From a virus, in the IMG/VR virus record IMGVR_UViG_3300032782_000007, positions 1 through 64,000 of that record: a DNA stretch of 64,000 nt. The stretch is one strand, 5' to 3'. Position numbers and translations under genes: made by a program. Below are positions 5,179 to 27,828 of this stretch, piece after piece. Positions within the stretch are counted from its first letter, which is position 1. Each line of letters opens with the position of its first letter. The notes beneath the pieces were generated by a model that saw only the letters and a program-made list of their open reading frames with translations, ran no database searches and was not told the origin of the DNA.

Positions 5179-8100
5179 GTGGGATTCATCGGCGACGCGG
5201 TAAATAGGGTCCGAGGCTGGATCCGCCAAGACAAAGAGCACACGGCGTTCCAGTTCGCCAAAGGCACGACCGCATCCGGCTACCCCAGCAGCGGAAGCGA
5301 CCTACTTCAAGCGTATGGGTATGACGTTCTCAGCGACTACCTCAAGCTTGAACAGGACCTTCTCTCCAGGTTCGTCGACTACGAGGAGATGGCCGATCAC
5401 CCTTTGATTGCCACCGCCCTGGAAATCTACGCGGACGATGCGACCCAGCACGACTACCACGTAGGTCGCCCCCTGTGGCTGAGTAGCCCCGACAAGACCA
5501 TCGAGGAGATCGGCGAAGACCTCTTCCATCGAACCCTCCGAATCGAAGAAGAGATCTGGAGTATCGCGCGGACGCTAGCCCTATACGGGCAAAATTACGA
5601 AGAGCTGCTTGTTACCGATCAAGGAGTGCGTGGACTCAACTACCTCGCGCCGCCGACGGTTCGCCGAATCGAGGGTACTCGCGGCGAACTATATGGATTT
5701 GTTCAAGATTTCAAAGGTCGGTTTGGGCACTGTTTGGCCTCCGGCTCCCGTGTTTGGGGCGTAAGCGGTCTAACGGAAATTCAGCAGTTCGACGAAGGCA
5801 AAGTCCTCGGGTACAAACCGGTAAAGGGGGTGCGTCCTGCCCTCGAATCGCCAGTCCGATCTCCGACCGCGGTTCTAGGAGGGGCGATCAAGACGCTGCC
5901 AGTGGTACGAAGGCACAGTAACGGTACACAACGCGTACTTCGAATTCGGACTCGTCACCGGGAAATCGTGGTAACAGCCGATCACCCCTTATTGGCCGTG
6001 CAGCCTTCCGAGGCCGGTCGTACGGGTGAGCCTACCTGGGTAAAAGCAAAAGACCTGCGACTAGTAAGACAGTCTGGTGGTAAGAAGAACATCGACTACG
6101 CGAAGTCGGCGAAACTTGTCATCTGCACACGAATGCCGGCGGGCCGTGTGCCGGAATGGTCAGAGATTTGGTCTGAGGACCCTGACGACTACACGACCTC
6201 TTGGGGTAGCCAACCCAAGAAGCTCACACTACCGGATCGTCCTACCCCTGAATTCTGCCGGCTTTTCGGATTTCTCCTGGGAGACGGTTGGCTCGACGAA
6301 GGTAACGTTTGCTACGCCCGCGGCGAGTATCCGGAGCTGAATGACTACTATGACGGACTGTTGAACTCGTATGGGCTTACACCTAGAATCAAAAACGACG
6401 GCGAACAGACCTGCGCGGGCGGTGTCTACCTGGCAAGACTGTTGGTCTCGCTCGGTTGGATCCAGGGTTCCCACAATAAACGGGTTCCGAGGTGGGTCTA
6501 CGGCCTCCCCGAGGAACACCGAGAGGCCTTTCTCAGGGGGTTCATCGATGCCGACGGGTGGGATCTACGGAGCAAAGCCGGACTGGTCATGCATCAGTTT
6601 GAGCTGGCAAATTACGATCTTGTCCGAGATCTGAAAAATCTTATTGACGGACTCGGCTACCACTGCGGGAATATCGGAAAACAGGTCAATAAGGTAGGCG
6701 ACACAATTCACAACCGTCGAACAGGCAAAGACGTTGTGGTCCAGACACGCGCCGACTCTTTTACGTGCTGCTATAGTGAGCTAAAGTTCGAAGCGCCGCT
6801 TGTAGCGGAGAACGTGATAAGCATCGTCGATCACGGCGAAGCAGAGGTTTTCGATCTCGAGGTCGACGATGAGGCCCATAACTTCATCGCAGACGGCGTT
6901 GTTGTTCACAATTCTCCGGCGGAATTCCAGCAGATTCTGGCTATGCGATCGGCGATGCTCCAGGGGCGATCTAACGGTCAAGGGACGATCGCCGGCATGG
7001 AACGTCTATCTGCGTTCGAGGATTGGGAGGTCGTTCACTTCCGAATCCACACCAAACAACGACGTGCCATATACGGGAGTTGCCTTGTCGGCTCAAGCCG
7101 CGTTTGGACGCCGGACGGAGTTAAAGCGATCGCGGACATCCGATCTGGAGATCGTGTGTTTACGCGCAAAGCGGGTCGTCTGCAGACTACGAAAGTTCTG
7201 GATCAGGTCTGCAACGGAGTGAAGCCTGTTTTCCGGGTGAGGACCACGCACAGAGAGATCACGCTAACAGCGAATCACCCGCTTCTGGTCGATCTCGGCG
7301 GTCACGGAAAGAACCGCTGGCGCCCAGTCGAAGAACTTAGAATCGGCGACAAGCTTGTGTTTGCGGCACGAATGCCGGAGACTCGGCCGCCGCCTCCTCT
7401 CGGGCTCAGATTACTGCGCGTCGACGACGACACGGAAGTGCGTCTTACCGCGCGCGGGGCCGCAGCTCTTCGCCAACAAACGCGAGAGAGCCACTACTCG
7501 CCGAGAGATAGCGGACTGCGACCGTTAGCCGCAAAACTGGGAATCACGCGAGCAGTTTTGGAACTTCTCTTGGAAGGGGGGTCAGCTGTTCCGCTGAAGA
7601 CGCTTAGAGCCCTGTTCGACGAAGCGGGTCTGCCGCTATTTGAGGGGAGTTGGACAAAAAAGCTTCAGGACGAGCGACTCCGGCTACCAGATTTCGTAGA
7701 ACCTTGGTTTGCGCGCCTGTACGGATTTCTTCTCGGCGACGGCTGGCTGACGGACGGCCAGGTATTGTTCGCGCTCGGCGTGGACGAAGAACGCAACAAG
7801 TTCTATGAAGGTTTGCTGGAAAAGTGTGGACTGCCGACAGCCCGTAGCGGTCGATATGACGAGCCGGGCGTAGAAACGCAATCGTACGTTAGCAGTCAAG
7901 CACTAGTCGGCGTCCTTAGGGAACTTGGGTGGATCGATGGTGCGCACTTCAAGCGTGTTCCGGCATGGGTTTACACGCTTCCGTTTGAGCACCGCAAGGA
8001 ATTCCTAGAGGGATTCATTGACGCCGATGGTTGGGAAACATACGAAGGGAAGTACCTGCACACCGAACTCTGCAACGATCCCCTCGTGCGAGACATCAAA

Positions 8101-13738: not shown

Positions 13739-15247
13739 ATGTCTACAGAAGCACGTGAAATATTGGCAGAGCAGCAGGCGCGGACGATCGCCGACAAGAG
13801 CTACGTCCGAAGCCTTGTTCAGAAGTGGGGCGAGTTTCTCGAGGGGATTCCGGACAAGACGGAACAGCAGCGCTACACGCTCGGCGTGGCGGCGATCCTC
13901 ATGGAGAACCAGTGCCAGCACCTCTTGACGATGAACGAGGACACGCGAACGGCCAACGTTGGTTCGTTCACGAAGTTCATCTTCCCGATCCTGCGCCGGG
14001 TCTTCCCGAACCTGATCGCGAACGAGATCGTCTCGGTACAGCCGATGACGGCTCCGACGGCGGCGGTCTTCTACCTCGACTACGTCTACGGCACGACCAA
14101 GGGCCAGACGCAGGCGGGAAACGTCTTCCCGCGTGACTTCGACCGCAACTACTCCTCGGAGTACGTGCAGGGCGAAATCCTTTGGACGGGTGACGGTACC
14201 CACGGTGGTGGTGCGGGCACGGCGATCTCGCTGAGCCTCGCGTTCAACCCAGTTCGTCCGCTCAACACGACGCTCGGCTTCTCCTGCGTGGTTCAGGAAG
14301 AGGACTCGACGGGCACGGCGGTCCAGGTGGCGACCGACAACGGAACGGGTGGATTCACCTTCGTTCCGGCTGGCGGATCCACCGCGGGCACGATCAACTA
14401 CTCGAACGGCGCGATCTCTGGATTCAAGTTCCAGAACGCTCCGGCGAGCGGAAACAAGGTCCGAGCCTACTACTACTACGACGGGGAGCTGAACCAGAAG
14501 GTTCCGCAGATCAACCTCGACGTCAAGCAGGCGCCGGTTCAGGCCCAGCCGCGTCGACTGAAGGCGCTCTGGTCGGCAGAGGCCGCTGAGGACCTCCGCG
14601 CGTTCCACGGGATCGACGCTGAGACCGAAATGGTTTCGGCTGTCGCCCAGGACATCGCGCTCGAGATCGACCGTGAGATCGTCAACGATCTCTTCGCGGC
14701 CTCGACGGGAACGACCGCGTCGTTCGACCGTGTACCCCCGGCGGGTATCGCGGAGATCGACCACCTCCGCGCGATGATCACGCAGATCTCGACGGTGTCG
14801 AACCTCATCCACAAGAAAACGCTGCGTGCGCCCGCGAACTTCATCGTCACGTCCCCGGACGTGTCGGCGCTGATCGCGCAGCTCACCACGCACGGTGACT
14901 ACCGTCCGCTCTGGGTCAGCGGCGGCGAATCCCCGTACGGCCCGGCAGACATGCCGCGTCCGCTCACCCAGCACGGGCAGTTCGGTATCTACAAGACCGG
15001 AACGCTCATGAACAAGTGGATGGTCTACGAAGACCCGTTCTTCACGCGCGATCAGATGCTGATCGGGCTCAAGGGCGGAAGCTTCCTCGACGCCGGATAC
15101 GTCTGGGCGCCGTACATCCCGCTTCAGGTGACTCCGACCTTCCTCGATCCGGCAGACTTTTCCTTCAGGAAGGGCCTCCGCACGCGTTACGCTAAGAAGT
15201 TGCTTCGAAGCGAATTCTACGGCCAAATGCGAATTCTTAATCTTTGA
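13739..15247 (+). CDS. Major capsid protein, T4 gp23-like
   Basis: RRVFPNLIANEIVSVQPM, RRLKALWSAEAAEDLRAFHGIDAETE, ALEIDREI, DAGYVWAPYIPL, GLRTRYA. Confidence 0.95.
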   Translation: MSTEAREILAEQQARTIADKSYVRSLVQKWGEFLEGIPDKTEQQRYTLGVAAILMENQCQHLLTMNEDTRTANVGSFTKFIFPILRRVFPNLIANEIVSVQPMTAPTAAVFYLDYVYGTTKGQTQAGNVFPRDFDRNYSSEYVQGEILWTGDGTHGGGAGTAISLSLAFNPVRPLNTTLGFSCVVQEEDSTGTAVQVATDNGTGGFTFVPAGGSTAGTINYSNGAISGFKFQNAPASGNKVRAYYYYDGELNQKVPQINLDVKQAPVQAQPRRLKALWSAEAAEDLRAFHGIDAETEMVSAVAQDIALEIDREIVNDLFAASTGTTASFDRVPPAGIAEIDHLRAMITQISTVSNLIHKKTLRAPANFIVTSPDVSALIAQLTTHGDYRPLWVSGGESPYGPADMPRPLTQHGQFGIYKTGTLMNKWMVYEDPFFTRDQMLIGLKGGSFLDAGYVWAPYIPLQVTPTFLDPADFSFRKGLRTRYAKKLLRSEFYGQMRILNL

Positions 15248-15306: not shown

Positions 15307-15364
15307 AAGGGTCCACACAAAATTTGTGTTGAACGTGCACGCCTCGGAGCGTATAACTCTCGGC

Positions 15365-16465
15365 ATGGGTCGAGTCGCAGGGAAGAAGCACGAGAAGCCG
15401 CGGGTATACTTGGCGCCCGAGCAGAAAACAGCATTGGTCCGTCGATACAACGAGGCGTTAGCCTCGAACGAGTTCCTCACGCAGGCCCAGCTGGGGGCGG
15501 AGTTCGGAATCACGCAGGTAGCGGCAAGCAAGATTCTCCGTGCGGCGGGGGTGAGGACGCGTTCCCGTGAGGAGGCGTGCCCGACGCGGATAGATCCTCA
15601 GGAGGCAGCTAGGATCTACCTGGAGAACCCTCGAATGACGATCGAAGAGGTCGGCGAGCTGTACGACGTCGGTTACACGGCGACTCGAGACCAGCTGCTC
15701 AAAGCGGGAGTACCGTTGAGGACGTCAACGGACTACGCGCGATACGCGTGCAACAGGAATTTCTTTGCTGAGGTGAACCCTACGACCGCGTACTTTGCGG
15801 GGTTCATCGCCGCTGACGGATACATCACCAAATCGGGTTTGTCCGTGAATTTCGGGCTCCATCCGAAAGACGCGGTGATTCTGACGAATCTCAAGGCAGC
15901 CTGTGGATCGGAGCATCCAATAGTGGTCAGGCCTAACAACACAGGGAGGTTATACAGCTGGCTCTCGGTGTGCAGCATCGACTGGGTGCGGGACCTCGAG
16001 CGTCACTACAATATCGTCAACGCGAAGTCGTTGATCCTTAGGCCTCCGAATCTGACCGATGAGGGCCTGATCTGGCACTTCATCCGCGGCTACTTCGACG
16101 GCGATGGACATGCAAGTCTTGCCGGTCTGGTACATATCATCACAGGTTCCCAGGCGTTTATGGGCTGGCTGAAAGAGATTCTAGGAGAGCCCGGGCACAT
16201 CCAGGAACACGAGTGGCTCAACGAGGACAAGGAGACCTACATTTGCGGCTACGGCGCCTGGTGGTCTAAACTTGCGGACGCTAAACGGATTGCGCTGAAA
16301 ATGTACGCCGACTCCACGCCCGCCATCCGGCTGGAGCGTAAATTTCTGCGTTTGCAACGGCATTTCGGGCCTGGGCCTCAGACGGCGCCCGAAGAGTTCG
16401 AGGACGTTCTCGAGCTAGACGACGCGGACGACGCCCCCGAGTTGGAACGGATTAAAGGCGCTTGA
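15365..16465 (+). CDS. Free-standing LAGLIDADG homing endonuclease with N-terminal HTH repeats
   Basis: AYFAGFIAADGYI and HFIRGYFDGDGH; TTGAAC-17-TATAAC lies 7 nt before ATG 15365. Confidence 0.9.
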   Translation: MGRVAGKKHEKPRVYLAPEQKTALVRRYNEALASNEFLTQAQLGAEFGITQVAASKILRAAGVRTRSREEACPTRIDPQEAARIYLENPRMTIEEVGELYDVGYTATRDQLLKAGVPLRTSTDYARYACNRNFFAEVNPTTAYFAGFIAADGYITKSGLSVNFGLHPKDAVILTNLKAACGSEHPIVVRPNNTGRLYSWLSVCSIDWVRDLERHYNIVNAKSLILRPPNLTDEGLIWHFIRGYFDGDGHASLAGLVHIITGSQAFMGWLKEILGEPGHIQEHEWLNEDKETYICGYGAWWSKLADAKRIALKMYADSTPAIRLERKFLRLQRHFGPGPQTAPEEFEDVLELDDADDAPELERIKGA

Positions 16466-16884
16466 AATCCGTGTCGGAATTGTGTCTCCACAGCTCCAAA
16501 GGGATCCTTCGGTACGAGATCGTCCCGGGGTACGGGTACCGAGCGGTCGTGGAGATCGACGAGGAGATCTCCAATTTCGCGCGCGCCCTGATCCCCAAAT
16601 CGATTCGTTGGAACCGACCCCTGTACGCGCCGCACATCTCCGTGATTCGCAAGGAGACTCCAAGGAACTTGTACGTCTGGGGGGCCTACCAGGGGGAGGA
16701 GATCCCCTTCGAGTATGACTCGACGCTCTTTAACGATGCCACCTACTGGTGGCTGAGGTGCTGGAGTCGGCGCCTAGAGACGATCAGAGAGGAACTGGGA
16801 CTCCCCACGCACACCTCGTACACGAGGGCCCCTGACGGCGCACAGTGCTTTCACACGACGGTGGCGAATACCAAGGGAATGTAG
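16462..16884 (+). CDS. 2H phosphoesterase (Acb1-like fold)
   Basis: Two HxS/T motifs, APHISV and FHTTV, in 140 aa. Confidence 0.75.
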   Translation: MKSVSELCLHSSKGILRYEIVPGYGYRAVVEIDEEISNFARALIPKSIRWNRPLYAPHISVIRKETPRNLYVWGAYQGEEIPFEYDSTLFNDATYWWLRCWSRRLETIREELGLPTHTSYTRAPDGAQCFHTTVANTKGM

Positions 16885-16936
16885 TGGACATACGACGCGC
16901 GTGACAATCGTCTCAGTCCGTGGTAGCTTCTCGCGT

Positions 16937-17230
16937 ATGAAGAACGAGACGATTGAGACGACGGGGATGAAGATCGCGCAACTCATGTGGCCGCACGCGA
17001 TTCTCGTGGGGGCCCTTGTGGGTCGTTCCACGGGGTCGAAGGCTGGCGACAAGCACTCCGCGATGTTGTACGGAAGCCTCGACGGGAGCAACTGCTCCTT
17101 CGAGGTCATGGACGAGGGCGCGACGAAGCTCGAGGCGTTCCGCAAGGTGGTCCGAAAGTGCCTCCGGACGACAACTGGGGCTGCGCGCGCGGAGATCGAG
17201 CAGCTCGCTGCGGCAGCCGAACGCGAGTAG
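16937..17230 (+). CDS. Hypothetical protein (leaderless)
   Basis: GTGACA-17-TAGCTT (16901-16929) lies 7 nt before the ATG. Confidence 0.55.
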   Translation: MKNETIETTGMKIAQLMWPHAILVGALVGRSTGSKAGDKHSAMLYGSLDGSNCSFEVMDEGATKLEAFRKVVRKCLRTTTGAARAEIEQLAAAAERE

Positions 17231-17264
17231 TCGTGCGCGCCTTTTGGCGGGTGTTGAGGGTGAA

Positions 17265-17792
17265 ATGCTAATTCTCGATATCGGCGCGCGTCCAATCCGC
17301 GTCACTTACACCTACGAAGTAGCCACCGAATACCCGCCGCAGCGCGGCGACTCCTACCAGGACCGTTCCACGCACGCGGAGTGGGTGGTAGCGGAGGTCG
17401 TTACGGCTCCGCCGGCGATTCGTAATCCGCCCGCGACGAAGCCCCTGTACGAGGTGACACTGCGATCTCCCTGGGGAGCGCCTGCTGTGCCGATGCGTTT
17501 GATCGCGATGTACGAGCAGGCGCTCGGCGGGTACCTCCAGAGAACCCCTACCGGCTCCGTTCTCGGGCTCGGAGAGCTTCCAGGGCTAGCCCACTCGTGG
17601 ATGTTCAGGGAGAACATCAACGCCAACGGGGAGCGCGAGTTCGCTCTGTTTGTGGGACCGCGTGTGGGATCTTTCGTCGAGTTCTGTGGCAGCCTCATCG
17701 AGTACAAAACGCCGTGGGAGGATCGGGACTCGCTTCCGTGGTGGTTCGTCGAGCAATCGCAGTCGCAGTTTCGTAAGGACTTCCATGAATAA
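17265..17792 (+). CDS. Hypothetical protein
   Basis: GAGG RBS; tiles with neighbouring genes. Confidence 0.55.
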   Translation: MLILDIGARPIRVTYTYEVATEYPPQRGDSYQDRSTHAEWVVAEVVTAPPAIRNPPATKPLYEVTLRSPWGAPAVPMRLIAMYEQALGGYLQRTPTGSVLGLGELPGLAHSWMFRENINANGEREFALFVGPRVGSFVEFCGSLIEYKTPWEDRDSLPWWFVEQSQSQFRKDFHE

Positions 17793-18144
17793 CGGTTATC
17801 CAGGCGTGGGCCAAACACCGCTGTTTGCTCCGCGACTGCGTGTAGAGCTGGAACACGTCAAGCACGGTATCCAGACGATGCTCACGGCGCATACGGAAGA
17901 ACTTCAGCAGATGGCGGAGGAAGCGCTCGCGGAGCTTCTCGTTCCAGAGAAGATCGCCGAGCGAGTACGTCAGGAGGTTGAGGCCCAGCTTCGGCGGGTC
18001 CTGGACGAGACGATTGTCACTGCGATTCGATCGTCCGTCGGCGATGTCGTATTCGAACGAGTTCGAGAGGCTACGTTGTTGGCGGCGAAAACGGAGGTAG
18101 AACGCCTCTCGAAGCGCGCCAAGCGCGGCCGCCAGCGACGTTGA
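17785..18144 (+). CDS. Hypothetical helical protein
   Basis: AAGGA RBS; overlaps the upstream stop. Confidence 0.6.
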   Translation: MNNGYPGVGQTPLFAPRLRVELEHVKHGIQTMLTAHTEELQQMAEEALAELLVPEKIAERVRQEVEAQLRRVLDETIVTAIRSSVGDVVFERVREATLLAAKTEVERLSKRAKRGRQRR

Positions 18145-18169
18145 CAATCCCTTCCATCTCGCGTAGTGT
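18141..18169 (+). promoter_or_regulatory. Sigma70 promoter giving a leaderless transcript
   Basis: TTGACA-17-TAGTGT, 6 nt before ATG 18176. Confidence 0.75.
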
Positions 18170-18175
18170 CGCTGT

Positions 18176-18904
18176 ATGAACCGACGAGATCTGCTCAAGC
18201 TAGTTGGGGCGCTTCCTGTGCTCGGAATGTCGCGGACCGCTGAAGGGGCGCCGGAGGCAGCGAAGGTCCGTACGGACCTCTCGAAAGATACGTTCGTCTT
18301 AGCAGACAACGTCGAGCCGATCGCCGCAGATCCGGCGAGGGCGGCGGACCGCCTGAATGCGAACTTTGACAGGCTCGCAGCTTCGCACCCAGCCTGGTGG
18401 TCCCCTGCGGAGGAGGATCTGCAGCTGCAACGACGGATCTGCAATCGTCTGTGCAGATTGCTGATCGATCTGCGGTGTCAGTTCCTGGACGGGCACGAGG
18501 GGGAAGATCCCGCGGCGCCTTTCTACCCTCACCAGAGCCCCACATTGATTCGCGATCACGTGGTGTTCGCAACAACGGATAGTCCCTTTGCGGTCCTCAA
18601 CGGCCAGGCCAAGCCTGCGTACGCGCGACGTTTGCGCGTGGCGTCGATCCCGCAGTTCCGAGGCATGCTCGACGACGTACGGGCGTACCACGGAATCGAC
18701 GTGGACTATGAAATCGTCAGCGGTGTGGCCTCGCAGACTGCGCTTGAGGTGTGCGCAGAGATTCGCAAAGACTGGGAGCGCGGTGTGAAGACGCGAGTCT
18801 ACGCTCTCTACATGGGTCCGTTCGTTCAAGGAGTGGACCCGGAGGTTGCAAAAGAGTTCTCCGTAGAGCGCCGATCGATGATCCGGTACGCGAAGTTCAC
18901 ATGA
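18176..18904 (+). CDS. Truncated major-capsid paralog with a Tat-like signal peptide
   Basis: N-terminus MNRRDLLKLVGALPVLGMSRTAEGA; 18/33 identity to the MCP block DLRAFHGID...EIVND; C-terminal FS-x7-RYAK as in the MCP. Confidence 0.8.
   Translation: MNRRDLLKLVGALPVLGMSRTAEGAPEAAKVRTDLSKDTFVLADNVEPIAADPARAADRLNANFDRLAASHPAWWSPAEEDLQLQRRICNRLCRLLIDLRCQFLDGHEGEDPAAPFYPHQSPTLIRDHVVFATTDSPFAVLNGQAKPAYARRLRVASIPQFRGMLDDVRAYHGIDVDYEIVSGVASQTALEVCAEIRKDWERGVKTRVYALYMGPFVQGVDPEVAKEFSVERRSMIRYAKFT
18266..18277. repeat. Palindrome copy 5 (intragenic; 16-bp perfect palindrome 18264-18279)
   Basis: gaagGTCCGTACGGACctct. Confidence 0.95.
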
Positions 18905-19287
18905 AGAACAAGCTGACCGGAGAGCTACAGAAGATGCGCGAGATGACCGATCTCATCGAGGAGGCACGCAAGCGTGGCCCGATGAGCGACGCAGAGCGCC
19001 GTGAGCAAGCGGCATCGTTCGCGTTCGGAAATCTCGCGCTCACCTCCCAGTGGAGGGACGCAACGCACGAGGAGTTGAAAGTACTTCGTGAGCGCTGCCG
19101 TCGGGCCGCGGGGTGCGAAGGAACCGCCTGTAAGCTGCCTCCTGCGGGTTGGCGGTGTTCGCGCGAGCCAGGCCACGAGGGTCCGTGTGCGGCCCGTCCT
19201 GGTTCTGCGTCCGAACCAAGCAGCGCGCCCACGCACCCGCCGTCGGACGGTCCGAACGGGTTTCGTGGTTGTCAGCGCTGCGAATGA
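18901..19287 (+). CDS. Hypothetical protein with a Cys/His motif
   Basis: CKLPPAGWRCSREPGHEGPCAA; ATGA overlap with the upstream gene. Confidence 0.6.
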   Translation: MKNKLTGELQKMREMTDLIEEARKRGPMSDAERREQAASFAFGNLALTSQWRDATHEELKVLRERCRRAAGCEGTACKLPPAGWRCSREPGHEGPCAARPGSASEPSSAPTHPPSDGPNGFRGCQRCE

Positions 19288-19873
19288 GGGGATCCATGAC
19301 TACGCGTTGTGTCCGTAAAGGCGAAGAAGCCGCGAATATGGAGCGGGCCGCGACAGAGGCGCGCAAAGAAGAGCGACGGATGGTGGTGAACTTCCTCTAT
19401 TCGTTCAATGCGCCTGAACTGGCCGAACGGATTGCGGCGGGCGAGCATACGGACGAACTAGACCCGAGGTAGATCATGTGGAATCCATTTCGAGTCAACG
19501 CGCCTCCTCCGCCCGAGCCGTCTGAGCCGGCGCCCCCGCCTCCTCCTCCGCCTCCTCCGTTCAATGCAAAGAGCAAGTGTCCGAAGTGCGGTAGCGGAAG
19601 CGGTTACACACGCTTCGTTGAAAGCAAAAACTTGATGAACAGGGTGTGCATGGATTGCACCGCCCACTGGTGGGAAACGCCGCTCGATCGCGCCACCTAG
19701 GAAGAACGCACATGGACGCAAAAACCGGACAAATCTATCTCAACGTAAGCAAAGAAGAGGCCAAGAAGAGAGGCCTGGTCCCGATTCCCGCCGATCAAGC
19801 GGAGAAGGTGATCAACATGAATCGGCGCGAGCGTCGAGCGTGGGCGGCGCAGCAGCGTCGGGCGAAGAAGTAG
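19284..19873 (+). other. Three small hypothetical ORFs (19284-19472, 19476-19700 Pro-rich Zn ribbon, 19712-19873 basic)
   Basis: Tightly tiled ORFs; CPKC...CMDC in the second. Confidence 0.55.
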
Positions 19874-19879
19874 GCTCCG

Positions 19880-20164
19880 ATGGGTGCAAGTTTCTTCTCC
19901 GAAAGAGGACTGGGCAAGACGGCTGAGATCGCGTTCGAGCAGCTTGTTGAAGAGGCTCGGTTCGATTTCGGACACGCAGGGTATACAGGCACGATCGCGG
20001 AGAAAACCGAGTTCAAGATGATCGAGTGCCCCAAAGGGTGGGACCCCGAGGACTGGATCGAGGAGGACGAGGCACTGGCGCAGGTCGAGGACAAGTGGGG
20101 CCCTGCCGGTTGTATCGATCTCGGCGGCGGGGAATGGCTTTTCTTTGGGTTCGCGTCCTCGTAA
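19880..20164 (+). CDS. Acidic hypothetical phage protein
   Basis: GHAGYTGTIAEK...DKWGPAGCI...WLFFGFASS. Confidence 0.7.
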   Translation: MGASFFSERGLGKTAEIAFEQLVEEARFDFGHAGYTGTIAEKTEFKMIECPKGWDPEDWIEEDEALAQVEDKWGPAGCIDLGGGEWLFFGFASS

Positions 20165-20177
20165 GCTTAGAAGCAGA

Positions 20178-22620
20178 ATGAATGAGGATTGCAAACACGC
20201 ACGCGTAGCGCCAGAAGTGTGCGATCAGACTCTCGGCGTGTACTGCCTGGACTGCAACGAGGGGCTTGTCGTGTGCTGGATGAAAGAGCATATTCCCGAG
20301 TCGCTGTGGAATCGTGCGTGTACGAACGACGTAGACGCGGTTCCGTGCGAGCGTGACCGGGACAATTACTGCGCTATCTGCGGGGAAGAGTTCTCCTTAT
20401 GAGCAGGAAACCCGATCCCCAAAAGGCCCCTGCGTTCGTCTCATGCTCCTGTTACGAGGAACGAGGAGAGCGCGTTGAGTGCCAGTCCTGCTACGAGGAG
20501 CGGCAGCTCGAGGCAGAGTCATACACAGAGGAGCTGGACGAAGACCAGCGCACCCCGGAGGTTCGCATAGAGAAGGTGCTCGCCTGGGCAGGCTTTCGCA
20601 GCACCGAAACGAACCACGAAGCGATACAGAAGGTGGCGCGGGCGATCCATGACGACGCCTACCGGGCGGGCCAGCACTCGCGCCGGCGCCGAGCGACGAA
20701 CCGAAGCTCTCCGTACCAACCGAAAAAGCTGCCACGGATCTAAAGGTCCGGAGAACCCGCCGCGCGATGCATCCCTATCGAGAGCTTCCGCCGACCCACC
20801 TCTACCTGGTGAGTTACAAACGAAGTCTTTCGTTTGCAGCTCCGTACAACGTGATGCGATGCGAGAGACTTGTCTGGGCTCGAGACGACCCTGATGCTCT
20901 AACGCAAGTCATCGCAGATGGCGCGGAAGACGTCAGCTGCGTGACTGTCAGGAAAATGCGATGAAGTATGACGTACCGCGAGACAAAAATGGGGTCAAGC
21001 TTGAGGTGGGGGATCGCGTTGAGGACGTGAACGACGCGTGGCCGCACCGGACCAGATACGGAACGATCCTTCTCGTCTACGAGGACTGCGCCGGAGTAAT
21101 CGACTGTCGGGTTCTTTGGGACGAGGCCGCTGAGTACACGCCGATTCACGGAAGTGCTGTTAGGAGACTGCCTCCGCCAAATCGCTTGATTCGGACGCTC
21201 GCGCGGATCGGACTTGTGACGGTCCGGAGTAACCGGACGGTACGTTGGCCCTTTTACGTAGCCCCGCGCTGGATGTGGGGTCCTTTGTGGCGTCTAGAAC
21301 CGGTGTTCGGACTCTTCCGTAACAGGCCGGACGTCATGAAATGGATTCCTGGGCGTCTTCTCCCGCTCCGATGGGGATTCCGGTGCTGGATCTTCGAGGT
21401 GGGGGATCGAGGGTCGGCTCAGTGGTCGCGTCGGGATCAACGGCTCGTGATCTGATAAAATGTTACCGATGAACGACGACTACGAGGATCCACAGGCCTG
21501 TAGTGATCCCTCGATGATCCTGACGCCCGAAGAGTGTCTGGCACTAATCGAGTCGCGCCCAGCAGCATCGCGCGCTCTAGGCCGTTACGAGGGGTTCGCG
21601 ATGGCCTCGGGGCTTATAGGGATGGCTCTGGCGATCCGGGAGCTGTACACGTGGGCCGACGATCCGAGCGCGGACGCCCCGTGTCCGGACTGTCACGCGC
21701 CCGAGGGTAAGGCCTGTCGCAATTGGTGTACGTTCACAGGGTGACCCATGCAGGTAGAGATGTCGCTGGCAGAGCTACTGATGAACGCCATTGGTGCGGG
21801 CCACGTACACGGCGTGCAGTTCAAGCGCGGGGCCAGCGACGACAGGAAGACCTTCGAGGACCTGCAGCGGGTGATCAGCAAACGTCTCGACGGGGCACGA
21901 ACGGTCGCAGTCGAGGAGGCGCTTCGCGAGCTACACGAGAAGCATCCCCCGTTTCGACTGCTCGCGGAGGTTCGCCGCCTACGTAAGGCGCTTCTCCAAA
22001 TCCCGACAGGCCTAGCGTGCCGGCTTTGCGGAAGGATGCCTACTCATGCAGTCACGCTCTGCGAGAGCCGCATGCTCTGCGAGAGCTGCATCGACGATTT
22101 GACTGAGATCGGAAGTGGCGGCAAGTGACAATCGGCCGCCAACTGTGGTAACGAAAGAAGGATGTTCGATCCGACAATCGAGGCCGCGCTGCATAAGCTC
22201 TACGAGAAGGTTGTTCTCACGGACGAAGACTGGGAACGGCTTGGAGTGGAGATGCGTACTGAGGGCGCAGGCGCAGTATCCGCGCGCATTGACCGACTTG
22301 TGACGGCGTTCACGGCTGTCAATGCGCCTCCGATTCCGGGCCTAAAGCCCTCTTTAGCCGCGGTTATCGAGTATGACCGCGTGACTCGGCTGGAAGCCCA
22401 AACGGCTGTCTATAAGAGCGAGAAACAAGCGTTCGAAGACTGGTCGAACACATTCCAGAATGAGAACGTAATCGACGCTCCCTGGGAAGCCAACCGGATG
22501 GGATTGTTGATTGCGTGGCAGCTTTCGCGTCTCAACAAGAACCTCGAAGATCTCAAGAACATACTCGATCTCCGCTGGGAAGCTAACCGGATGCTCGAGA
22601 TCATGCGAGAGCCGAAATGA
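20178..22620 (+). other. Run of small hypothetical ORFs (20178-20402, 20399-20743, 20767-20964, 20961-21455, 21460-21744, 21748-22128, 22162-22620)
   Basis: Tiled or overlapping ORFs, several with CxxC pairs; no function recognised. Confidence 0.55.
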
Positions 22621-22985
22621 GCGCCGGACGGCCTTCTATGGGCGAGCGCGCCTTTCGCGCAACTATCGTGGTTCCAGTACGATACGAACAGCGCGAACGA
22701 GCGATGGCTTTGGCGGCCACTCACGGGCTCTCTGTGGCGCAGGTAATGCGAATTGCCCTTGAGACACTGACCGAGCAGAAATTGGAACAAGCGCTGAAGA
22801 CTTTCTCCGCGGCGGAGAAACTTAGGCGATCCGATGAGCGATCGAAAACTGTATCTGTTCGAGAGCGGGAATCCCGACTGGGTCGTCGCGTACGACGTCG
22901 AAGACGCTCGCAACCTCTACTGCGCGCACCTCGGCGAGGACGTCGACGACTACGACGTTCACGAGTGGAAGCAGCTCGCGGATGA
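22617..22985 (+). CDS. Probable ribbon-helix-helix (CopG-like) regulator
   Basis: GRP...TIVVPVRYEQRERAMALAATHGLSVAQVMRIAL; 3' tail overlaps the next gene. Confidence 0.6.
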   Translation: MSAGRPSMGERAFRATIVVPVRYEQRERAMALAATHGLSVAQVMRIALETLTEQKLEQALKTFSAAEKLRRSDERSKTVSVRERESRLGRRVRRRRRSQPLLRAPRRGRRRLRRSRVEAARG

Positions 22986-23121
22986 TAAGGCCGCCCTGTA
23001 CTGGTTGGATCCGGAGACGGGAACGCTTACCGACGAGTATGACGGGGTCCTCACCACGTTGACCGCGCGCGAGGTGGTTGAACGATTCGGGCGCGGCTTC
23101 GTGGCGTCGGTAGACTTCTAA
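22834..23121 (+). CDS. Small acidic hypothetical protein
   Basis: 95 aa, rich in D/E and aromatic residues. Confidence 0.7.
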   Translation: MSDRKLYLFESGNPDWVVAYDVEDARNLYCAHLGEDVDDYDVHEWKQLADDKAALYWLDPETGTLTDEYDGVLTTLTAREVVERFGRGFVASVDF

Positions 23122-23124
23122 GAG

Positions 23125-23153
23125 TTGACACTCCGTGCGGGCGCTGGTAGAAC
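23125..23153 (+). promoter_or_regulatory. Sigma70 promoter
   Basis: TTGACA-17-TAGAAC with an extended TG. Confidence 0.7.
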
Positions 23154-23159
23154 CGATTA

Positions 23160-23325
23160 TGGGATTCTTGGGTCCCTGAGAGGGTTTGGGCGCGCCATCA
23201 CCGCGTCTGAGACGCCTTCCGAAGCGGGTTGATGCTCGTGCCGGGACCAAGAAGGACCTGTTTCTTTTGGTGGCGCTGCCAGGATCGGGTGATGGCCGAG
23301 CTGGTGGTGCCCGAAAGAAGCACGA
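23160..23325 (+). ncRNA. Candidate structured 5' leader RNA
   Basis: Stems 23165-76/23243-53, 23194-202/23288-96 (alternative 23192-200/23268-76), hairpins 23203-15 and 23307-23. Confidence 0.5.
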
Positions 23326-24003
23326 ATGGTCAACAAGAAGAAAAAGAAGGCCCGCGATCTGTCTAAAAAGTCCGGGATGTCCTACCAGGCGGCGGTGAAT
23401 GCCTTGGACGCGAAGTCCCCGGCAAGGGAACCGAACCCTCCGATCTCGGCGGCCATACCCATTTTGTGGGGGCCTCCGCTTCCACACGAAGAACTGGAGA
23501 GACGAGCGCTCGATCTTCGAACGTTAGATGAGGTCTTGGCTGACGAAGATAATATCATCGAACAGCGCCGTCCAGGCGCTAGAGCCGACGTCGAGGGGGG
23601 TGCGCTGCGGTTGGCCTCAGATATTGGAAAAGCATGGGATGAGCGGCACGTCCGGAAGCTTCGCGCAGAAGTGCTCCAAGGGGAAAAGGCACTAGAGTTG
23701 GTATGCCACGGTCGGCCCACCAGCACGCTAGTCGCGACCTTTTTCCGAGGCTCGGCTCGCGATCCTCTTCTTCTCCAGGACGAAAAGCGAACCTACGTCG
23801 CCCTGGAAGTCCTTCCAGAAATGCTGAGGCGCGCTGTAGAGAGCGAGATCGGTTCGCAGAGACGTAGCCGCGAAGATCGAACACTTCAGTGGGTGGAGAA
23901 AGAACTACTAGGGCGCCAGCTCATACTTCCAGAGGTGGAAGTAGGAAATCTCGAGAAGGCCGTACCGACGTACCTTTCGGCCTGGGCGAAAGACCCGGAG
24001 TAG
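23326..24003 (+). CDS. Hypothetical protein with a basic N-terminal helical domain
   Basis: MVNKKKKKARDLSKKSGMSYQAAVNAL. Confidence 0.7.
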   Translation: MVNKKKKKARDLSKKSGMSYQAAVNALDAKSPAREPNPPISAAIPILWGPPLPHEELERRALDLRTLDEVLADEDNIIEQRRPGARADVEGGALRLASDIGKAWDERHVRKLRAEVLQGEKALELVCHGRPTSTLVATFFRGSARDPLLLQDEKRTYVALEVLPEMLRRAVESEIGSQRRSREDRTLQWVEKELLGRQLILPEVEVGNLEKAVPTYLSAWAKDPE

Positions 24004-24050
24004 GCGGCCTTGCGTTGCAAAGCCAGTTTCATGCGTGATACACTCGACGC

Positions 24051-24437
24051 ATGTCTCGAGAAATCCGTTTGGAACTGGTTTTGCGCGCTCGAACCGAGGA
24101 GGGCAAGCCTCTAACGGTTGCTGAGGCCGCGCTCCCTCTGACCCTGCGCGCGCCACAAGCAGGCCCTGCGCAGACGAAGGGCGACGGTGAAGCGGATTTG
24201 GCCGGCGCGATCGAGGCTGCGCTCGCAGAGGTTTCTGCGGCGGCTCTTGCGGGACCGTTGATTCGCAGTCTCCGTGTGAATGGGGGCGCGAGCGAGATCA
24301 CGCGTAGTGGGCGAACGGTTTTCTACGTCGACGTGGGAGACATGGAGCCTGGCGAGGCGTCCCGTTACGTCGAGAGTGTCAGGGACGCGCTTGTTCTGCG
24401 CGACGGTGAGGTCATTCAAGCAACGAGGTCCAAGTGA
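24051..24437 (+). CDS. Small protein carrying a portal-like motif
   Basis: RTVFYVDVGDMEPGEASRYVESVRD is 11/25 identical to portal RFAYYVDTGNLPPAEALAYLNRVRQ; TTGCAA-18-TACACT lies 6 nt upstream. Confidence 0.7.
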   Translation: MSREIRLELVLRARTEEGKPLTVAEAALPLTLRAPQAGPAQTKGDGEADLAGAIEAALAEVSAAALAGPLIRSLRVNGGASEITRSGRTVFYVDVGDMEPGEASRYVESVRDALVLRDGEVIQATRSK

Positions 24438-24784
24438 GCAAGATTATCCGTACGTATCGTCTTCCGCTCCCCGTGTTCAAGCAGGGCGACGATCTTGCGT
24501 ACAAGATCAAGGTCAACAATGGCAACCTGGCAGAAGCCTTTCGAGATCAGGCGGACGCTTACCAGGACGCCTCGGAGATCTGTCGTAAGCTCGCAGGGGT
24601 GTGCGCGGAGACACCGGGCATGGATGTGATCGCGGACTGCCACATGGTTCAGATCGACGGGCCTCCGGAGACGCTGGCGGTGCTCGCAAAAGACGGCTTC
24701 GTTGAGATTGAGGAGTTCGACGATGACTGGGACGAGGATTCTGAGGACGGTCTGGATCCTGATGACGACGGGCTCGACGTCTGA
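24434..24784 (+). CDS. Hypothetical protein with a highly acidic tail
   Basis: Ends EEFDDDWDEDSEDGLDPDDDGLDV. Confidence 0.7.
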   Translation: MSKIIRTYRLPLPVFKQGDDLAYKIKVNNGNLAEAFRDQADAYQDASEICRKLAGVCAETPGMDVIADCHMVQIDGPPETLAVLAKDGFVEIEEFDDDWDEDSEDGLDPDDDGLDV

Positions 24785-25029
24785 TGAAGCAGTGCGAGTG
24801 GTTTACTAGTCCCACGGATCGCTGCCCGAATCCCGCAGTAGAACGCTGGTCGCGGAAGGGCGATCTGGACTCGGTGGTGGCCGCGGAGAAGCACTGGTGC
24901 GGCGATCACAGTCTGGACTCGAAAGCTCGTGCGGAGTGGTGGGAGCGCGTGAGTACGCTTGCGATCGGACATCTTGCGAATCGGTCGCAGGTGCTGACGA
25001 ACTTCGATGTTCAGGCCATCGACGAGTAA
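24784..25029 (+). CDS. Small Cys/His hypothetical protein
   Basis: C..C...WCGDH; TGATG overlap. Confidence 0.55.
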   Translation: MKQCEWFTSPTDRCPNPAVERWSRKGDLDSVVAAEKHWCGDHSLDSKARAEWWERVSTLAIGHLANRSQVLTNFDVQAIDE

Positions 25030-25055
25030 GCGGTTATCTGGTAGGTTAGGCGTGA

Positions 25056-25832
25056 ATGTCTGAGGGAATTCTCGATGTTTTGCAGGAGCTGAAACAGCTC
25101 GGGGCGATTGGCCCTGCGCCCGCGCCCTCGCCTGCGCCGATCCCGCCTTCGCCGCCTTCGCCGCCAGAGCCGCCGAAAGAAGATACACGCGGTCCGCACA
25201 TGATCGAGCTGTGCGAACGGGCGATGGCGACCCTTCAGAAAATGGGGCGCGCGCAGGAAGAGGGTCAACGAGATCTCTTTGCGGTATTCGAGGAGATGCG
25301 CGATCTCTGGGCGGACATCGCAACGGCCGCGCCGACTGAAACGGTTACCGTGGACGTCGAGGAGTCGAAGGCGAAAGGTCCGCACGGACTTTCACCGCCA
25401 GTTGAAACCTCGGCGACGGAGATCGCGATCCCGGTTGTAGAGGGACCGATCGAGGTTCCCCAGCAAATCGAGCAGGTCATGCGCGGGCTCGCGCCCGAGG
25501 TGTCTGCGATCGACGAGCTTCTGGTGAAGATGCAGCAAGAGGGGCACAAGTTCCCTCGTTTGGAGACAATCGAAGATGACGAAGAGCTTTATCCGGAACC
25601 CGGCAGTGTCGGAGGTGGTACTCCCTGGCGTGGGGAAAGTCCGCAACCAGGTCCTAACGGGCCAGCAGTACGAGAAGTACGTGCCGAAGTTCCTCATCGA
25701 GGTCCCGGAGTCTCAGGCGACTCCGTTGGAGCAGACAGCGCCCTCGCACGCGCCGCAGCCGCTCACCGAGCCCGCACCGATGCCCCAGCCGCTCCCGGAG
25801 GAGCAGCGGAAGAAACCGGAACCGCTCACTGA
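25056..25832 (+). CDS. Pro-rich acidic hypothetical protein
   Basis: -10-like TAGGTT 8 nt upstream; the 3' part overlaps the next ORF. Confidence 0.55.
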   Translation: MSEGILDVLQELKQLGAIGPAPAPSPAPIPPSPPSPPEPPKEDTRGPHMIELCERAMATLQKMGRAQEEGQRDLFAVFEEMRDLWADIATAAPTETVTVDVEESKAKGPHGLSPPVETSATEIAIPVVEGPIEVPQQIEQVMRGLAPEVSAIDELLVKMQQEGHKFPRLETIEDDEELYPEPGSVGGGTPWRGESPQPGPNGPAVREVRAEVPHRGPGVSGDSVGADSALARAAAAHRARTDAPAAPGGAAEETGTAH

Positions 25833-26013
25833 GGTGATGCCGCTAGGCGACCCGCCCGGGCCAGAACCGCTCGTCGAAGGGTGGACCGATCGCGGATTCG
25901 GCGCGCTTCCCCCGGAGGCAGCGCCAGACGCTGTCAGCTTGGAAAGCAAAGCGGTATCCGAGTCGAAGGGTGCCGACAAGGCGAAGTCCAAGTCAAAGGG
26001 CAAAGGGGCCTGA
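25576..26013 (+). CDS. Hypothetical protein (small N-domain plus low-complexity tail)
   Basis: GGAG RBS; repeated PLTE/PLVE/PLEQ. Confidence 0.6.
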   Translation: MTKSFIRNPAVSEVVLPGVGKVRNQVLTGQQYEKYVPKFLIEVPESQATPLEQTAPSHAPQPLTEPAPMPQPLPEEQRKKPEPLTEVMPLGDPPGPEPLVEGWTDRGFGALPPEAAPDAVSLESKAVSESKGADKAKSKSKGKGA

Positions 26014-26191
26014 TGTTTCGACGCGAAGACGATTTCATCTGCGGGAAGTTTACACCGGAGACTGCGGACACTCCGGACTTGGCGTTGCGGCTTGTACGGC
26101 CGATCGCGTACTTTACCGCTCTAGGCTTGACGGGGACGAGGGTGTTCGGGCTCGAGTCCATGTCTGCCGAACCTACTGACGTTGCGGAGTA

Positions 26192-26515
26192 ATGAGCCGT
26201 CCCAAAAATGGCATGTCCCCTATCCACCCAGGGGAACTGCTTCGAGAGGACTTCCTCGTCCCCCTCAACCTGAGCGCGAGGAGACTCGCGCTCGCGCTCG
26301 GGGTCCCACCGAACCGCGTCACCTCGATTCTAAACGAGGAGCGCGACATTACGGCCGACACGGCCCTCCGCCTCGCTCGCGTCCTCGGCACCTCGGCTGA
26401 ATTCTGGATGAACCTACAGAAGACGTTCGAGCTTCGCACCGCGGAGCGTGTCCTCGCAAGGAAGTTGACGAAACTCAAGCCATTAAGTTTGCTGTCCATG
26501 CATTCAAAGGGATAG
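26192..26515 (+). CDS. higA: HigA-family antitoxin (orphan)
   Basis: PIHPGELLREDFL...ITADTALRLARVLGTSAEFWMNLQ. Confidence 0.92.
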   Translation: MSRPKNGMSPIHPGELLREDFLVPLNLSARRLALALGVPPNRVTSILNEERDITADTALRLARVLGTSAEFWMNLQKTFELRTAERVLARKLTKLKPLSLLSMHSKG

Positions 26516-26519
26516 AACG

Positions 26520-26855
26520 ATGCCGCACTACGCAGATGGAACTCCCGCCAAGGTTGGCGATCAGGTTTTCGGACAGTTCTTCAACACGCCTGGTGTTCGA
26601 GCGGGGACGATTATCTCGATCACGCCTGGACACGAGCAGTGCAACGCGATGATTCAGTTCACCGAAGCTGTGATGTGCCCTGAGGGCGGCAGCATCGACC
26701 ACACGATGTTTCCACGAATGGCGATTCGTGACGATCTTGGAGTGCCTCTCCAACGAGTGGTGCGAGGAGAGGCGCACGGAGCTTCAGGGCCGACGTACGC
26801 TCTATTTGCCTGCGCCGACTACTGCGACACGAACAAGCTGACTCGACTCGCCTAA
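26520..26855 (+). CDS. Hypothetical protein
   Basis: MPHYADGTPAKVGD; tiled with neighbours. Confidence 0.65.
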   Translation: MPHYADGTPAKVGDQVFGQFFNTPGVRAGTIISITPGHEQCNAMIQFTEAVMCPEGGSIDHTMFPRMAIRDDLGVPLQRVVRGEAHGASGPTYALFACADYCDTNKLTRLA

Positions 26856-27040
26856 TGTGCGAGGAGGTCGGATGCGCACTTGAGGCGTATCGCACGCTGC
26901 GAACACAACTCCGGGAGTTGCTTGCGGATGGCGGAGCAGATTCCGAGGCCGAAGAAGATCTGTTGAATCAGCTGGATATCGCCTGGTGGGCGATGACTAT
27001 CCAGAACCGAGAACTGCTAGAAAAAGAGGCCCCGGTCTAA
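26855..27040 (+). CDS. Small hypothetical protein
   Basis: TAATG overlap. Confidence 0.5.
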   Translation: MCEEVGCALEAYRTLRTQLRELLADGGADSEAEEDLLNQLDIAWWAMTIQNRELLEKEAPV

Positions 27041-27093: not shown

Positions 27094-27828
27094 ATGCCCA
27101 CCTCGCAAAACAGTTTGATGACGGCGGAGCAGATCCAGCAGTGGGTGCTTCGACGCCTCGGCGGCTCGTTTCTCAAGGTAGAACTATCCCAGGACGAGCT
27201 GGACGACGCCATTGAAGGCGCCCGTAGATGGTTCAGCGCGCGAAAAGGCGTGAAGAGGCAGGCGTACGTGCCGTTTTACTCCGGCCAGACCACGTACACT
27301 CTCGACCCTCAAATAGACGTAGTGCTCGACGTGAGCTTCCCGGTTCCGTCGATGGACATCTCGCTCATCTTCTCTCCGTACATCCTGCAGGACGAGAAGA
27401 TCCCGTACGACGTCTTCGCGGCGCCGTCCTCGATGGGTCTCTACTCGACGTACACGCAGACCATGCAGTACATCGACGAGGCCAAGCGGATCCTCAACGC
27501 AGAGCCTGATTGGCGGCAGGAGGATCGCACTCTGTACATTTTCCCGATCCCCAAGACGAACGGGAACATGCTTCTCGACTACAAGAGCTTCGATTTCACG
27601 ATCGAGCAGCTAAGCGAACGCGATCACGACCTTGTAAAGCGCTACGCGCTAGCATGGGCCAAACGGGACGTGGGTCGTATCCGCAGCAGGTACGCGAGTT
27701 ATCCCGGCGCACAGGGCCAGACCGAATTGGACGGGGATAAGCTCCTCGAAGAGGCAAAAGAGGAGATGGAGCTGCTCGACAAGGAGATCGCGTGGAGCGC
27801 GATGCCGAGCGGGTTCCTCACGGGCTAA
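27094..27828 (+). CDS. Neck protein, T4 gp13-like
   Basis: RLGGSFLKVELSQDELDDAI; YALAWAKRDVGRIRSRY..PG...LDGDKLLEEA. Confidence 0.85.
   Translation: MPTSQNSLMTAEQIQQWVLRRLGGSFLKVELSQDELDDAIEGARRWFSARKGVKRQAYVPFYSGQTTYTLDPQIDVVLDVSFPVPSMDISLIFSPYILQDEKIPYDVFAAPSSMGLYSTYTQTMQYIDEAKRILNAEPDWRQEDRTLYIFPIPKTNGNMLLDYKSFDFTIEQLSERDHDLVKRYALAWAKRDVGRIRSRYASYPGAQGQTELDGDKLLEEAKEEMELLDKEIAWSAMPSGFLTG

Follow-up and report, generated by a model that had tools for sequence, protein, structure and literature searches.

What might explain why a T4-like phage, already equipped with a major capsid protein (MCP) and a portal, also encodes a truncated protein derived from that MCP and a small protein bearing a copied piece of that portal? 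Both extra genes lie between the capsid and neck genes in the stretch of DNA analysed here, 64,000 nucleotides that we call the window and that represent positions 1-64,000 of IMG/VR virus contig IMGVR_UViG_3300032782_000007 (73,239 bp; completeness estimate 43%). The contig has a G+C content of ~60%, carries almost every gene on the plus strand and also encodes sheath, tube and baseplate genes. By its sequence the source is an uncultured, distant T4-like phage, and the closest GenBank phage MCPs are merely 26-37% identical to the window MCP. For comparison we used 15 IMG/VR contigs with MCPs 68-84% identical to that of the window (the relatives). A first-pass annotation had described the locus as an anti-defence island built partly from mimics of the phage's own virion proteins, which might serve as decoys for immune sensors or as dominant-negative inhibitors of competing T4-like phages. 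Phage accessory islands and molecular mimicry are both already known. What appears to be undescribed is a conserved family that comes from a phage's own capsid protein, is devoid of the domain that closes the capsomer and carries an export-type signal; full-text literature searches returned nothing relevant on HK97-fold twin-arginine proteins, on capsid paralogues or truncated capsids, or on portal mimics.

A capsid protein family without the axial domain

The MCP-derived protein, encoded by open reading frame (ORF) 18176-18904, is 53% identical across its residues 166-199 to residues 284-317 of the phage's own MCP (E 4e-8). When 84 island frames were compared with 116 frames from the rest of the window, its similarity to the MCP was the sole strong match (E 2e-6), and no further island ORF resembled a virion protein of the window. 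When 1.84 billion representatives were searched exhaustively, a family of 28 emerged at E<=1e-3, 13 of them at <=1e-10, ranging from 88 to 266 amino acids. The family profile aligned with an alignment of ten MCPs at an hhalign probability of 98.2% (E 4e-14), and 12 of the 28 members individually match Pfam Gp23 (best 1.5e-12); the window protein by itself has no Pfam hit at E<=10. Codon usage of the ORF scores best in its own frame. Together the sequence and profile matches indicate that ORF 18176-18904 truly descends from the MCP.

To see which parts of the capsid protein were retained, the family profile was compared with the window's own contig and five large relatives, where it hits only MCPs, as two colinear pieces: profile positions ~129-194 (E 1e-15 to 5e-18) and 204-235 (E 3e-4 to 7e-3), equivalent to nucleotides 14501-14692 and 15107-15199 of the phage's own MCP gene. 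The intervening MCP residues ~319-456 (~139 residues) are replaced by ~9 family positions (profile 194-204), and a greedy profile alignment gives the same gap with the C-termini paired. The AlphaFold2 model of the window protein (predicted local distance difference test, pLDDT, 86.9; predicted template modelling score 0.78) has merely ~40 residues after the spine helix. Among 48,161 chains compared by VIA-align, its best match is T4 gp24 (1yue_A; root-mean-square deviation 4.1, 127 residues aligned) with a Z of 7.1, a value in the range where common arrangements can score. Judged by title, capsid proteins and encapsulins account for 47 of the 50 listed rows, all except 39, 41 and 45. The HK97 fold is assigned because the structure match agrees with the sequence profile. 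As modelled, the MCP-derived protein is a truncated HK97 fold without the axial domain and falls short of the completeness that forms a capsomer. Foldseek returned nothing at E<=0.001 for this model from either the PDB or BFVD. In BFVD, rows 1 and 2 rank highest (E ~0.02); both are small and uncharacterised, with 138 and 176 amino acids, and one comes from the T4-like cyanophage S-CAM7. They are a lead only, to cultured phages that might carry relatives of the truncated capsid fold.

What remains in the family is the end of an acidic helix, the spine helix and two strands rich in Arg and Lys; what is gone is the axial domain, which makes up the centre of a capsomer. Its best-conserved stretch corresponds approximately to T4 gp23 277-287, directly after the short acidic helix of the peripheral (P) domain that bears A275. 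According to the review PMC9958956, the acidic P-domain helix and a neighbour's basic sheet join capsomers near the quasi-threefold axes, and head-length mutations cluster at this helix. A separate feature of the family is a Cys-x3-Cys pair in the second N-terminal helix (window residues 89-93), kept in ~18 of 27 full-length members, which could be a metal site or a disulfide and would fit an exported or cofactor-binding protein.

Distribution of the MCP-derived family

No family member was found in five relatives with complete head modules (overall completeness 42-69%), nor is the gene present in the syntenic gap between the MCP and neck genes of 13 relatives. A tblastn search of 50,697 GenBank phage records and a pattern scan of 185,579 prokaryote genomes each failed to find a member. 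Searching viral contigs revealed one full-length relative (on contig L020) and two weak partial matches (L021 and L022, 31% identity over residues 126-197), and a metagenome scan revealed at least one contig (2.5 kb) with a family member; the members P0009 and P0010, used as single queries, gave no additional genomic context. On L020 the gene follows helicase, ribonucleotide reductase, thymidylate synthase, dihydrofolate reductase, kinase and exonuclease genes, in what is a replication and nucleotide-metabolism module. On contig L023 (positions 1655-2528) there are two tandem paralogues with overlapping stop and start codons, both with a twin-arginine N-terminus, the second of which runs off the contig. 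Family relatives for which DNA sequence is available are only ~38-40% identical, and synonymous sites are saturated.

This is the pattern of an accessory, fast-moving and patchily distributed gene; it matches neither a decaying fragment nor a core component of the virion. The first-pass annotation had recognised that the mimics could be decaying genes or ordinary virion components. For the MCP-derived gene, what is found instead is a conserved family that is not part of the core, being missing from relatives and located in a replication module in L020.

A twin-arginine N-terminus

An N-terminal Met-x-Arg-Arg followed by a hydrophobic stretch is present in 22 of the 28 family members. The uncharged stretch after the two arginines is at least 12 residues long in 20 members, and six match Pfam TAT_signal (best E 0.0031), the signature of the twin-arginine translocation (Tat) signal. 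The family member P0058 has a full twin-arginine signal ending in Ser-Lys-Ala. The window copy is the weakest case, with the arginine pair at positions 3-4, just 11 uncharged residues and no TAT_signal match. Feature neighbours of the MCP-derived protein in the ESM Atlas include Tat-signal clusters, all with scores <0.9 and to be taken as leads only. The Tat-type signal suggests that the MCP-derived protein may act at or beyond the cytoplasmic membrane.

If the signal is functional, the family might consist of exported envelope proteins, in which the capsid domain now serves as a periplasmic or secreted module and the likeness to MCP and portal is a matter of descent rather than of mimicry. 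Such a module could be used to exclude superinfecting phages or to mask receptors. The frequency of the arginine motif, the P0058 signal, the TAT_signal matches and the Atlas neighbours all point in this direction, and coupled tandem paralogues such as those of L023, together with a patchy distribution, are typical of cell-surface conflict genes. We nevertheless consider export to the envelope improbable: the best-conserved parts of the family are the MCP contact elements, the terminase-docking peptide that follows the signal in two members (see below) would have no obvious periplasmic partner, the window copy has the short uncharged stretch and lacks the Pfam match, and the portal-motif ORF has no signal at all.

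The same N-terminus could be interpreted differently. In T4, internal proteins have a capsid-targeting sequence that is removed by the prohead protease. The MCP-derived proteins could similarly be accessory prohead or virion components, with an N-terminus that is a capsid-targeting sequence cut by the prohead protease, the protein then riding in or on the head and being injected or decorating it. The N-terminal 15 residues of the family are strongly conserved, with a near-constant Leu-Pro, beyond the need of a generic signal peptide; the first 10 residues have a mean pLDDT of 82 in the model; and the gene adjoins head genes in the window. This interpretation is very unlikely in our estimation, as the five relatives with complete head modules do without the family, the L020 copy resides in a replication module, the N-terminus is found in no other window ORF, and the hydrophobic stretch and TAT_signal hits fit an export signal better.

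A copy of the portal clip tip

The second gene, ORF 24051-24437, resembles the portal. Its residues 88-111 are 46% identical to residues 1095-1118 of the phage's own portal (nucleotides 8461-8532), the source of the motif, and up to 62.5% identical to the relatives' portals. The portal ORF itself aligns with T4 gp20 262-515. A clip profile of 81 columns, made from eight lineage portals and searched against 7,287 six-frame ORFs (392 kb), ranks ORF 24051-24437 right after the portals (E 8.9e-5, 21.7 bits), with the next non-portal at 0.99 and 8.7 bits. Pfam Portal_T4 also matches the ORF, with E 1.3e-4 for the contig and a score of 17.8 bits that is below the 22.9 cut-off and covers only 27 profile positions; in five relatives (461 kb in total) only true portals match this profile at E<=0.1. 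By codon usage, the ORF's own frame scores highest. We regard the portal match as above chance because of the Pfam specificity, the clip-profile ranking and the codon usage controls, and the predicted protein is a motif carrier and not a portal.

The copied segment maps to T4 gp20 281-306, and the mapping reproduces N291, M292, R295 and K296. As described in PMC4493910, the gp20 clip domain (279-358) is the attachment site for the packaging ATPase gp17 and later for the neck, the clip-tip residues N291, M292, R295 and K296 face gp17, and a 24-residue gp20 peptide, 288-311, binds gp17 and inhibits packaging.

The two modules, encoded separately here, are combined in another phage. P0009, a member of the family, and P0058, a longer protein of the same cluster, consist of the Tat-type signal, then a clip piece, then the MCP-derived domain. 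Their clip piece matches positions 28-53 of the clip profile (E 3e-10) and is identical to the window portal at 15 of 35 positions (E 1e-7); it is absent from the other 26 family members. The occurrence of both modules in one protein argues for a common purpose and a functional link. The mimicry of MCP and portal that the first-pass annotation had proposed is therefore upheld by a conserved family of 28 representatives, by a motif that is exactly the terminase-docking tip of the clip and by the fusion.

Proposed competitive binding at assembly and packaging interfaces

What could such copies do? Each of the two mimic genes copies a surface where a virion part meets a partner. The explanation that we favour, at a probability of roughly 40%, is competitive binding at assembly and packaging interfaces, with co-infecting relatives or satellites as the likeliest targets. 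The capsid copy comprises only the peripheral part, with its short acidic helix, spine helix and basic strands, and has lost the axial domain that holds the capsomer together. In T4 the kept elements make capsomer-to-capsomer contacts. The copy would act on capsomers or their partners by capping or mis-templating them. The C-terminal third of the portal-motif protein copies the clip tip, the docking site of the large terminase, and would occupy the docking surface of the terminase (or of the neck). Co-infecting relatives or satellites would be impaired in virion assembly and DNA packaging, and the phage might possibly time its own packaging in this way. The homologies, the deleted domain, the fusion and the patchy accessory distribution are observed, whereas any binding, its target and the direction of the conflict are inferred. 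The dominant-negative inhibition of competing T4-like phages suggested by the first-pass annotation gains support from the T4 peptide 288-311 result in PMC4493910.

Several considerations weigh against competitive binding. The main unexplained feature is the Tat-type signal: capsomers and terminase are cytoplasmic and would be out of reach of a protein that is exported. A functional signal would weaken simple interference and immune decoy explanations alike, unless the protein were tethered at the translocase or its partner co-exported, which is speculation. A mimic that binds self would harm its own phage unless it were selective or timed. The proposed partner of the clip copy is not on the contig, where the Terminase_6N and Terminase_6C profiles for the large terminase have no match anywhere. 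The portal match extends over only ~26 residues, and in a within-window BLAST search it hardly stands out from chance, its E of 0.005 falling among those of three chance hits (0.003-0.006). The tip residues themselves are D97, M98, G101 and E102 in the ORF and N, L, A and E in the phage's own portal. ORF 24051-24437 has no homologue among 5.8 billion clusters and nothing usable in the ESM Atlas, and the Z score of the capsid fold match is, as mentioned, one that common arrangements can reach. A complex prediction of the phage's own MCP with residues 40-242 of the MCP-derived protein returned 'no answer', with a score of 0.00 in two runs, which counts neither for nor against binding.

Could the portal-motif ORF be a functionless relic, a leftover of recombination or homing, or a chance match? 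The lack of homologues, the short match and the near-chance BLAST result would fit, and the contig is rich in homing elements (two portal inteins, one intein in ORF 1134-4421 and a free-standing endonuclease at the island edge). We give this little credence. The clip profile places the ORF 13 bits above the next non-portal hit, and five relatives are free of stray Portal_T4 hits; the 26-residue piece is found again in P0009 and P0058; codon usage is best in frame; a promoter-like site stands at the ATG, and the next gene is coupled. Furthermore, a relic is inapplicable to the MCP-derived gene, which belongs to a conserved family.

Competitive binding could be extended into a more general proposal, which we put forward as doubtful. 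Large uncultured T4-like phages might deploy 'self-interface mimics', Tat-tagged capsid proteins without the axial domain and sometimes fused to a clip piece, that would capture the capsomers or terminase of rivals or blind immunity, perhaps tethering or exporting their catch by hitch-hiking on the Tat system. In the window, the mimic would have been split into two genes, each with its own host-type promoter.

Promoter-like sites at the two genes

The first-pass annotation had assigned the two mimics their own promoters. A promoter-like site does stand at the start of each gene (Table 1), and a stricter sigma-70 scan found no plus-strand site in the 13-29 kb region. An exact-pattern count gives two sites on the plus strand, both at the mimic genes, which is no test because the pattern was defined after seeing the sites. 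A looser scan found six plus-strand sites with at least 8 of 12 matches against 4.4 expected, and three of the six end 5-6 nucleotides before start codons, those of genes 9678, 18176 and 24051. This geometry suggests that the sites may be real promoters giving leaderless transcripts. The third site (TTGACT-N18-TAGCGT, 9643-9678) ends 5 nucleotides short of the GTG with which gene 9678-10907, part of the head module, begins. Since this head-module gene shares the geometry, early timing of the mimic genes is not proven by it. A search for T4 late promoters by their consensus gave one match (one mismatch, minus strand) against 4.6 expected and was not used.

The island and its other genes

The gap between the MCP and neck genes is 11,846 bp in the window, compared with 678-1767 bp in the 13 of 15 relatives that hold both genes at the locus. 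The island consists of two insertions, at ~15.25-25.05 kb and 26.0-27.09 kb, that flank one conserved gene, 25576-26013, whose counterparts in the relatives sit just upstream of the neck gene. The only other island ORF with a counterpart in the relatives' loci is 25056-25832 (one hit, L016). This acidic, proline-rich ORF overlaps 25576-26013 by 257 nucleotides in another frame, and the gene ends are ambiguous. The first-pass annotation had drawn one island from 16462 to 27040; the island is real, as the enlarged gap attests, while its proposed start omits the endonuclease gene 15326-16465, the first gene of the first insertion, and the insertions number two, not one. The endonuclease gives no tblastn hit in the 15 relatives, the island has no nucleotide match among the 50,697 GenBank phage records, and no flanking repeats marking the insertions were found. 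The short gaps of the relatives carry several differing sets of small ORFs, so the locus is a variable spot of the lineage. The island is best explained as accessory DNA, specific to this strain, that was inserted at a recombination hot spot in the head module. A candidate third mimic, based on a 35-nucleotide repeat shared by ORF 20399-20743 and the neck gene, was rejected: there is no protein similarity, and the repeat was taken as chance.

Table 1. Features of the capsid-neck region and associated head genes in the window (aa, amino acids; HTH, helix-turn-helix; nt, nucleotides; pI, isoelectric point)
Feature	Position	Strand	Size	Remarks
Portal gene	5179..9609	+	1476 aa	One open frame; Pfam Portal_T4 4.8e-59, Intein_splicing, LAGLIDADG
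Prohead protease	12095-13696			
MCP, gp23 type	13739..15247	+	502 aa	Pfam Gp23 1.7e-70; left island boundary
LAGLIDADG homing endonuclease	15326..16465	+		Free-standing; N-terminal HTH; LAGLIDADG_3 27.7 bits (cut-off 22.5), Sigma70_r4, phrog_4645 2.9e-32
2H phosphoesterase	16462..16884	+	140 aa	Two His-x-Ser/Thr motifs, H58-I-S and H131-T-T
Promoter-like site	18141..18169	+		TTGACA-N17-TAGTGT; ends 6 nt before ATG of 18176 (leaderless geometry)
MCP-derived protein	18176..18904	+	242 aa	Strongest MCP-like segment nt 18671-18772
Small acidic protein	19880..20164	+	94 aa	pI 4.2; codon usage best in own frame
Small acidic protein	21460..21744	+	94 aa	pI 4.2; weak zinc-finger match
Small acidic protein	22834..23121	+	95 aa	pI 4.1
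Promoter-like site	24015..24044	+		TTGCAA-N18-TACACT; ends 6 nt before ATG of 24051 (leaderless geometry)
Portal-clip-motif protein	24051..24437	+	128 aa	Motif residues 87-112, nt ~24309-24386; no signal peptide
Small acidic protein	24434..24784	+	116 aa	pI 4.1; net charge -19; start overlaps portal-motif gene stop by 4 nt
Conserved lineage gene	25576..26013	+		Outside insertions; single-linkage grouping with 12 of 13 relatives; 7 direct BLASTP hits
Orphan HigA-family antitoxin, HTH	26192..26515	+	107 aa	TIGR02607 1.9e-31, 107.7 bits (cut-off 47.7); phrog_1381 9e-25
Small acidic protein	26855..27040	+	61 aa	pI 4.1
Neck/head-tail adaptor	27094..27828	+		phrog_211 2.5e-15; right island boundary; homologues in 13 relatives

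Other elements of the island named in the first-pass annotation were recovered as well. The 2H phosphoesterase is identified by its fold and by H58 and H131, which are invariant in 28 homologues. Its AlphaFold2 model has a pLDDT of 94.7, and VIA-align rows 1-21 all belong to the 2H superfamily (Z 6.2 to 3.7) before scores drop to 3.0; the matches include phage Acb1 (7t27_A, Z 5.5, level with other 2H enzymes) and viral 2',5'-phosphodiesterases. Pfam 2H-SAK matches at E 0.026 only, below cut-off, PDB sequences give no match by single sequence or profile, and Foldseek found nothing in the PDB at E<=0.001 for the model. The relatives of the protein are 'hypothetical' proteins of jumbo phages. The HigA-family protein is well above the TIGR02607 cut-off and is indeed an orphan as regards the HigB family, PF05015 having no match on the 73-kb contig at E<=1; ORF 25881-26192, immediately upstream, has no family hit. 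The small acidic proteins are five ORFs of 61-116 amino acids with pI values of 4.1-4.2. ORF 19476-19700 (74 amino acids) has a run of ~20 prolines and then a zinc-ribbon-like end, Cys-x2-Cys ... Cys-x2-Cys, with a weak match to Zn_Ribbon_YjdM (E 0.0049).

Inteins are found in two large ORFs upstream of the island. In the portal ORF, two Intein_splicing stretches and a LAGLIDADG domain lie between portal profile positions ~114 and ~159; the portal frames of the relatives are 599-631 amino acids long, with some up to 938 and 1039, and intein load therefore differs within the lineage. ORF 1134-4421 (1095 amino acids) has an HNH-bearing intein inside a host protein without a Pfam or PHROG match.

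Possible decoys for immune sensors

The first-pass annotation preferred to see the locus as an anti-defence island. Avs4 senses portals, Avs1-3 sense TerL, and CapRel and Lit respond to capsid protein. Truncated capsid and clip proteins could act as decoys that bind sensors of the capsid or portal fold and so block or pre-empt their activation. Conserved core elements of MCP and portal are retained in the mimics, and it is such conserved core folds, of MCP and other virion proteins, that Avs sensors recognise according to a preprint (bioRxiv 10.64898/2026.01.04.697583). The island also carries the 2H phosphoesterase with its Acb1-like fold and the orphan HigA, and host-type promoter-like sites at both mimic genes would permit expression ahead of the late genes. 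We nonetheless judge decoys unlikely. When the 30 island ORFs were compared with PADLOC, Pfam, PHROGs and NCBIfam, libraries that hold few anti-defence families, only HigA/HTH matches emerged and no known anti-defence or defence family, which leaves the anti-defence designation of the island without a matching gene, and no sensor is known for the host. A Tat-type signal on most MCP-derived family members would take the protein out of the cytoplasm, where sensors act, and a simple cytoplasmic decoy is hard to reconcile with it. A faithful mimic could equally trigger the sensor, and early expression is unproven, the head gene 9678 having the same promoter geometry. The mimics do bear on the possible evasion of capsid-, portal- and terminase-sensing immunity. 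Whether directed at rivals, as competitive binding would have it, or at host sensors, they suggest a so far undescribed way for phages to interfere.

Comparison with known systems

The 2H phosphoesterase shares its fold, size and two catalytic His motifs with Acb1 and the viral 2H phosphodiesterases, and differs in having no sequence-level match to any solved 2H enzyme. The HigA gene, toxin-less and in a phage accessory region, is reminiscent of the phage orphan antitoxins described as counter-defence in the abstract of PMC11825919, a precedent that concerns DarG-like enzymes, unlike the HigA-family gene here; the host is not known to have a defence based on HigB.

The MCP-derived protein can be compared with two kinds of capsid protein. 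With T4 gp24 and gp23 it shares ancestry, according to profile and fold, and has the acidic helix, spine helix, basic strands and C-terminal strand in the same order; unlike them, it is half-size, has neither axial nor insertion domain, begins with a twin-arginine N-terminus and is not a core gene. Satellite capsid homologues such as Ccm redirect the capsid assembly of the helper, Ccm being a complete HK97 fold that co-assembles into shells. SaPIbov5 Ccm (PDB 7rwz), which appears at VIA-align row 22 with Z 4.2, resembles the window gene in being a capsid homologue outside the normal capsid gene. In contrast to Ccm, the window gene is in a phage and not a satellite, encodes no axial domain and belongs to a family that mostly carries a Tat-type signal.

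The portal motif is closest to the T4 gp20 peptide 288-311. The copied segment covers most of that peptide (281-306 in the window ORF, 284-309 in P0009 and P0058) and includes the tip, 291-296, although its tip residues differ both from those of T4 and from those of the phage's own portal. The T4 peptide is a laboratory reagent, whereas here the segment is part of a natural gene, within an unrelated 128-residue protein or fused to a capsid domain. The natural reuse of the portal segment that, as a T4 peptide, bound terminase and blocked packaging in vitro leads to a directly testable hypothesis of phage-against-phage interference, and the fusion of this segment with the capsid-derived domain in another phage strengthens the link.

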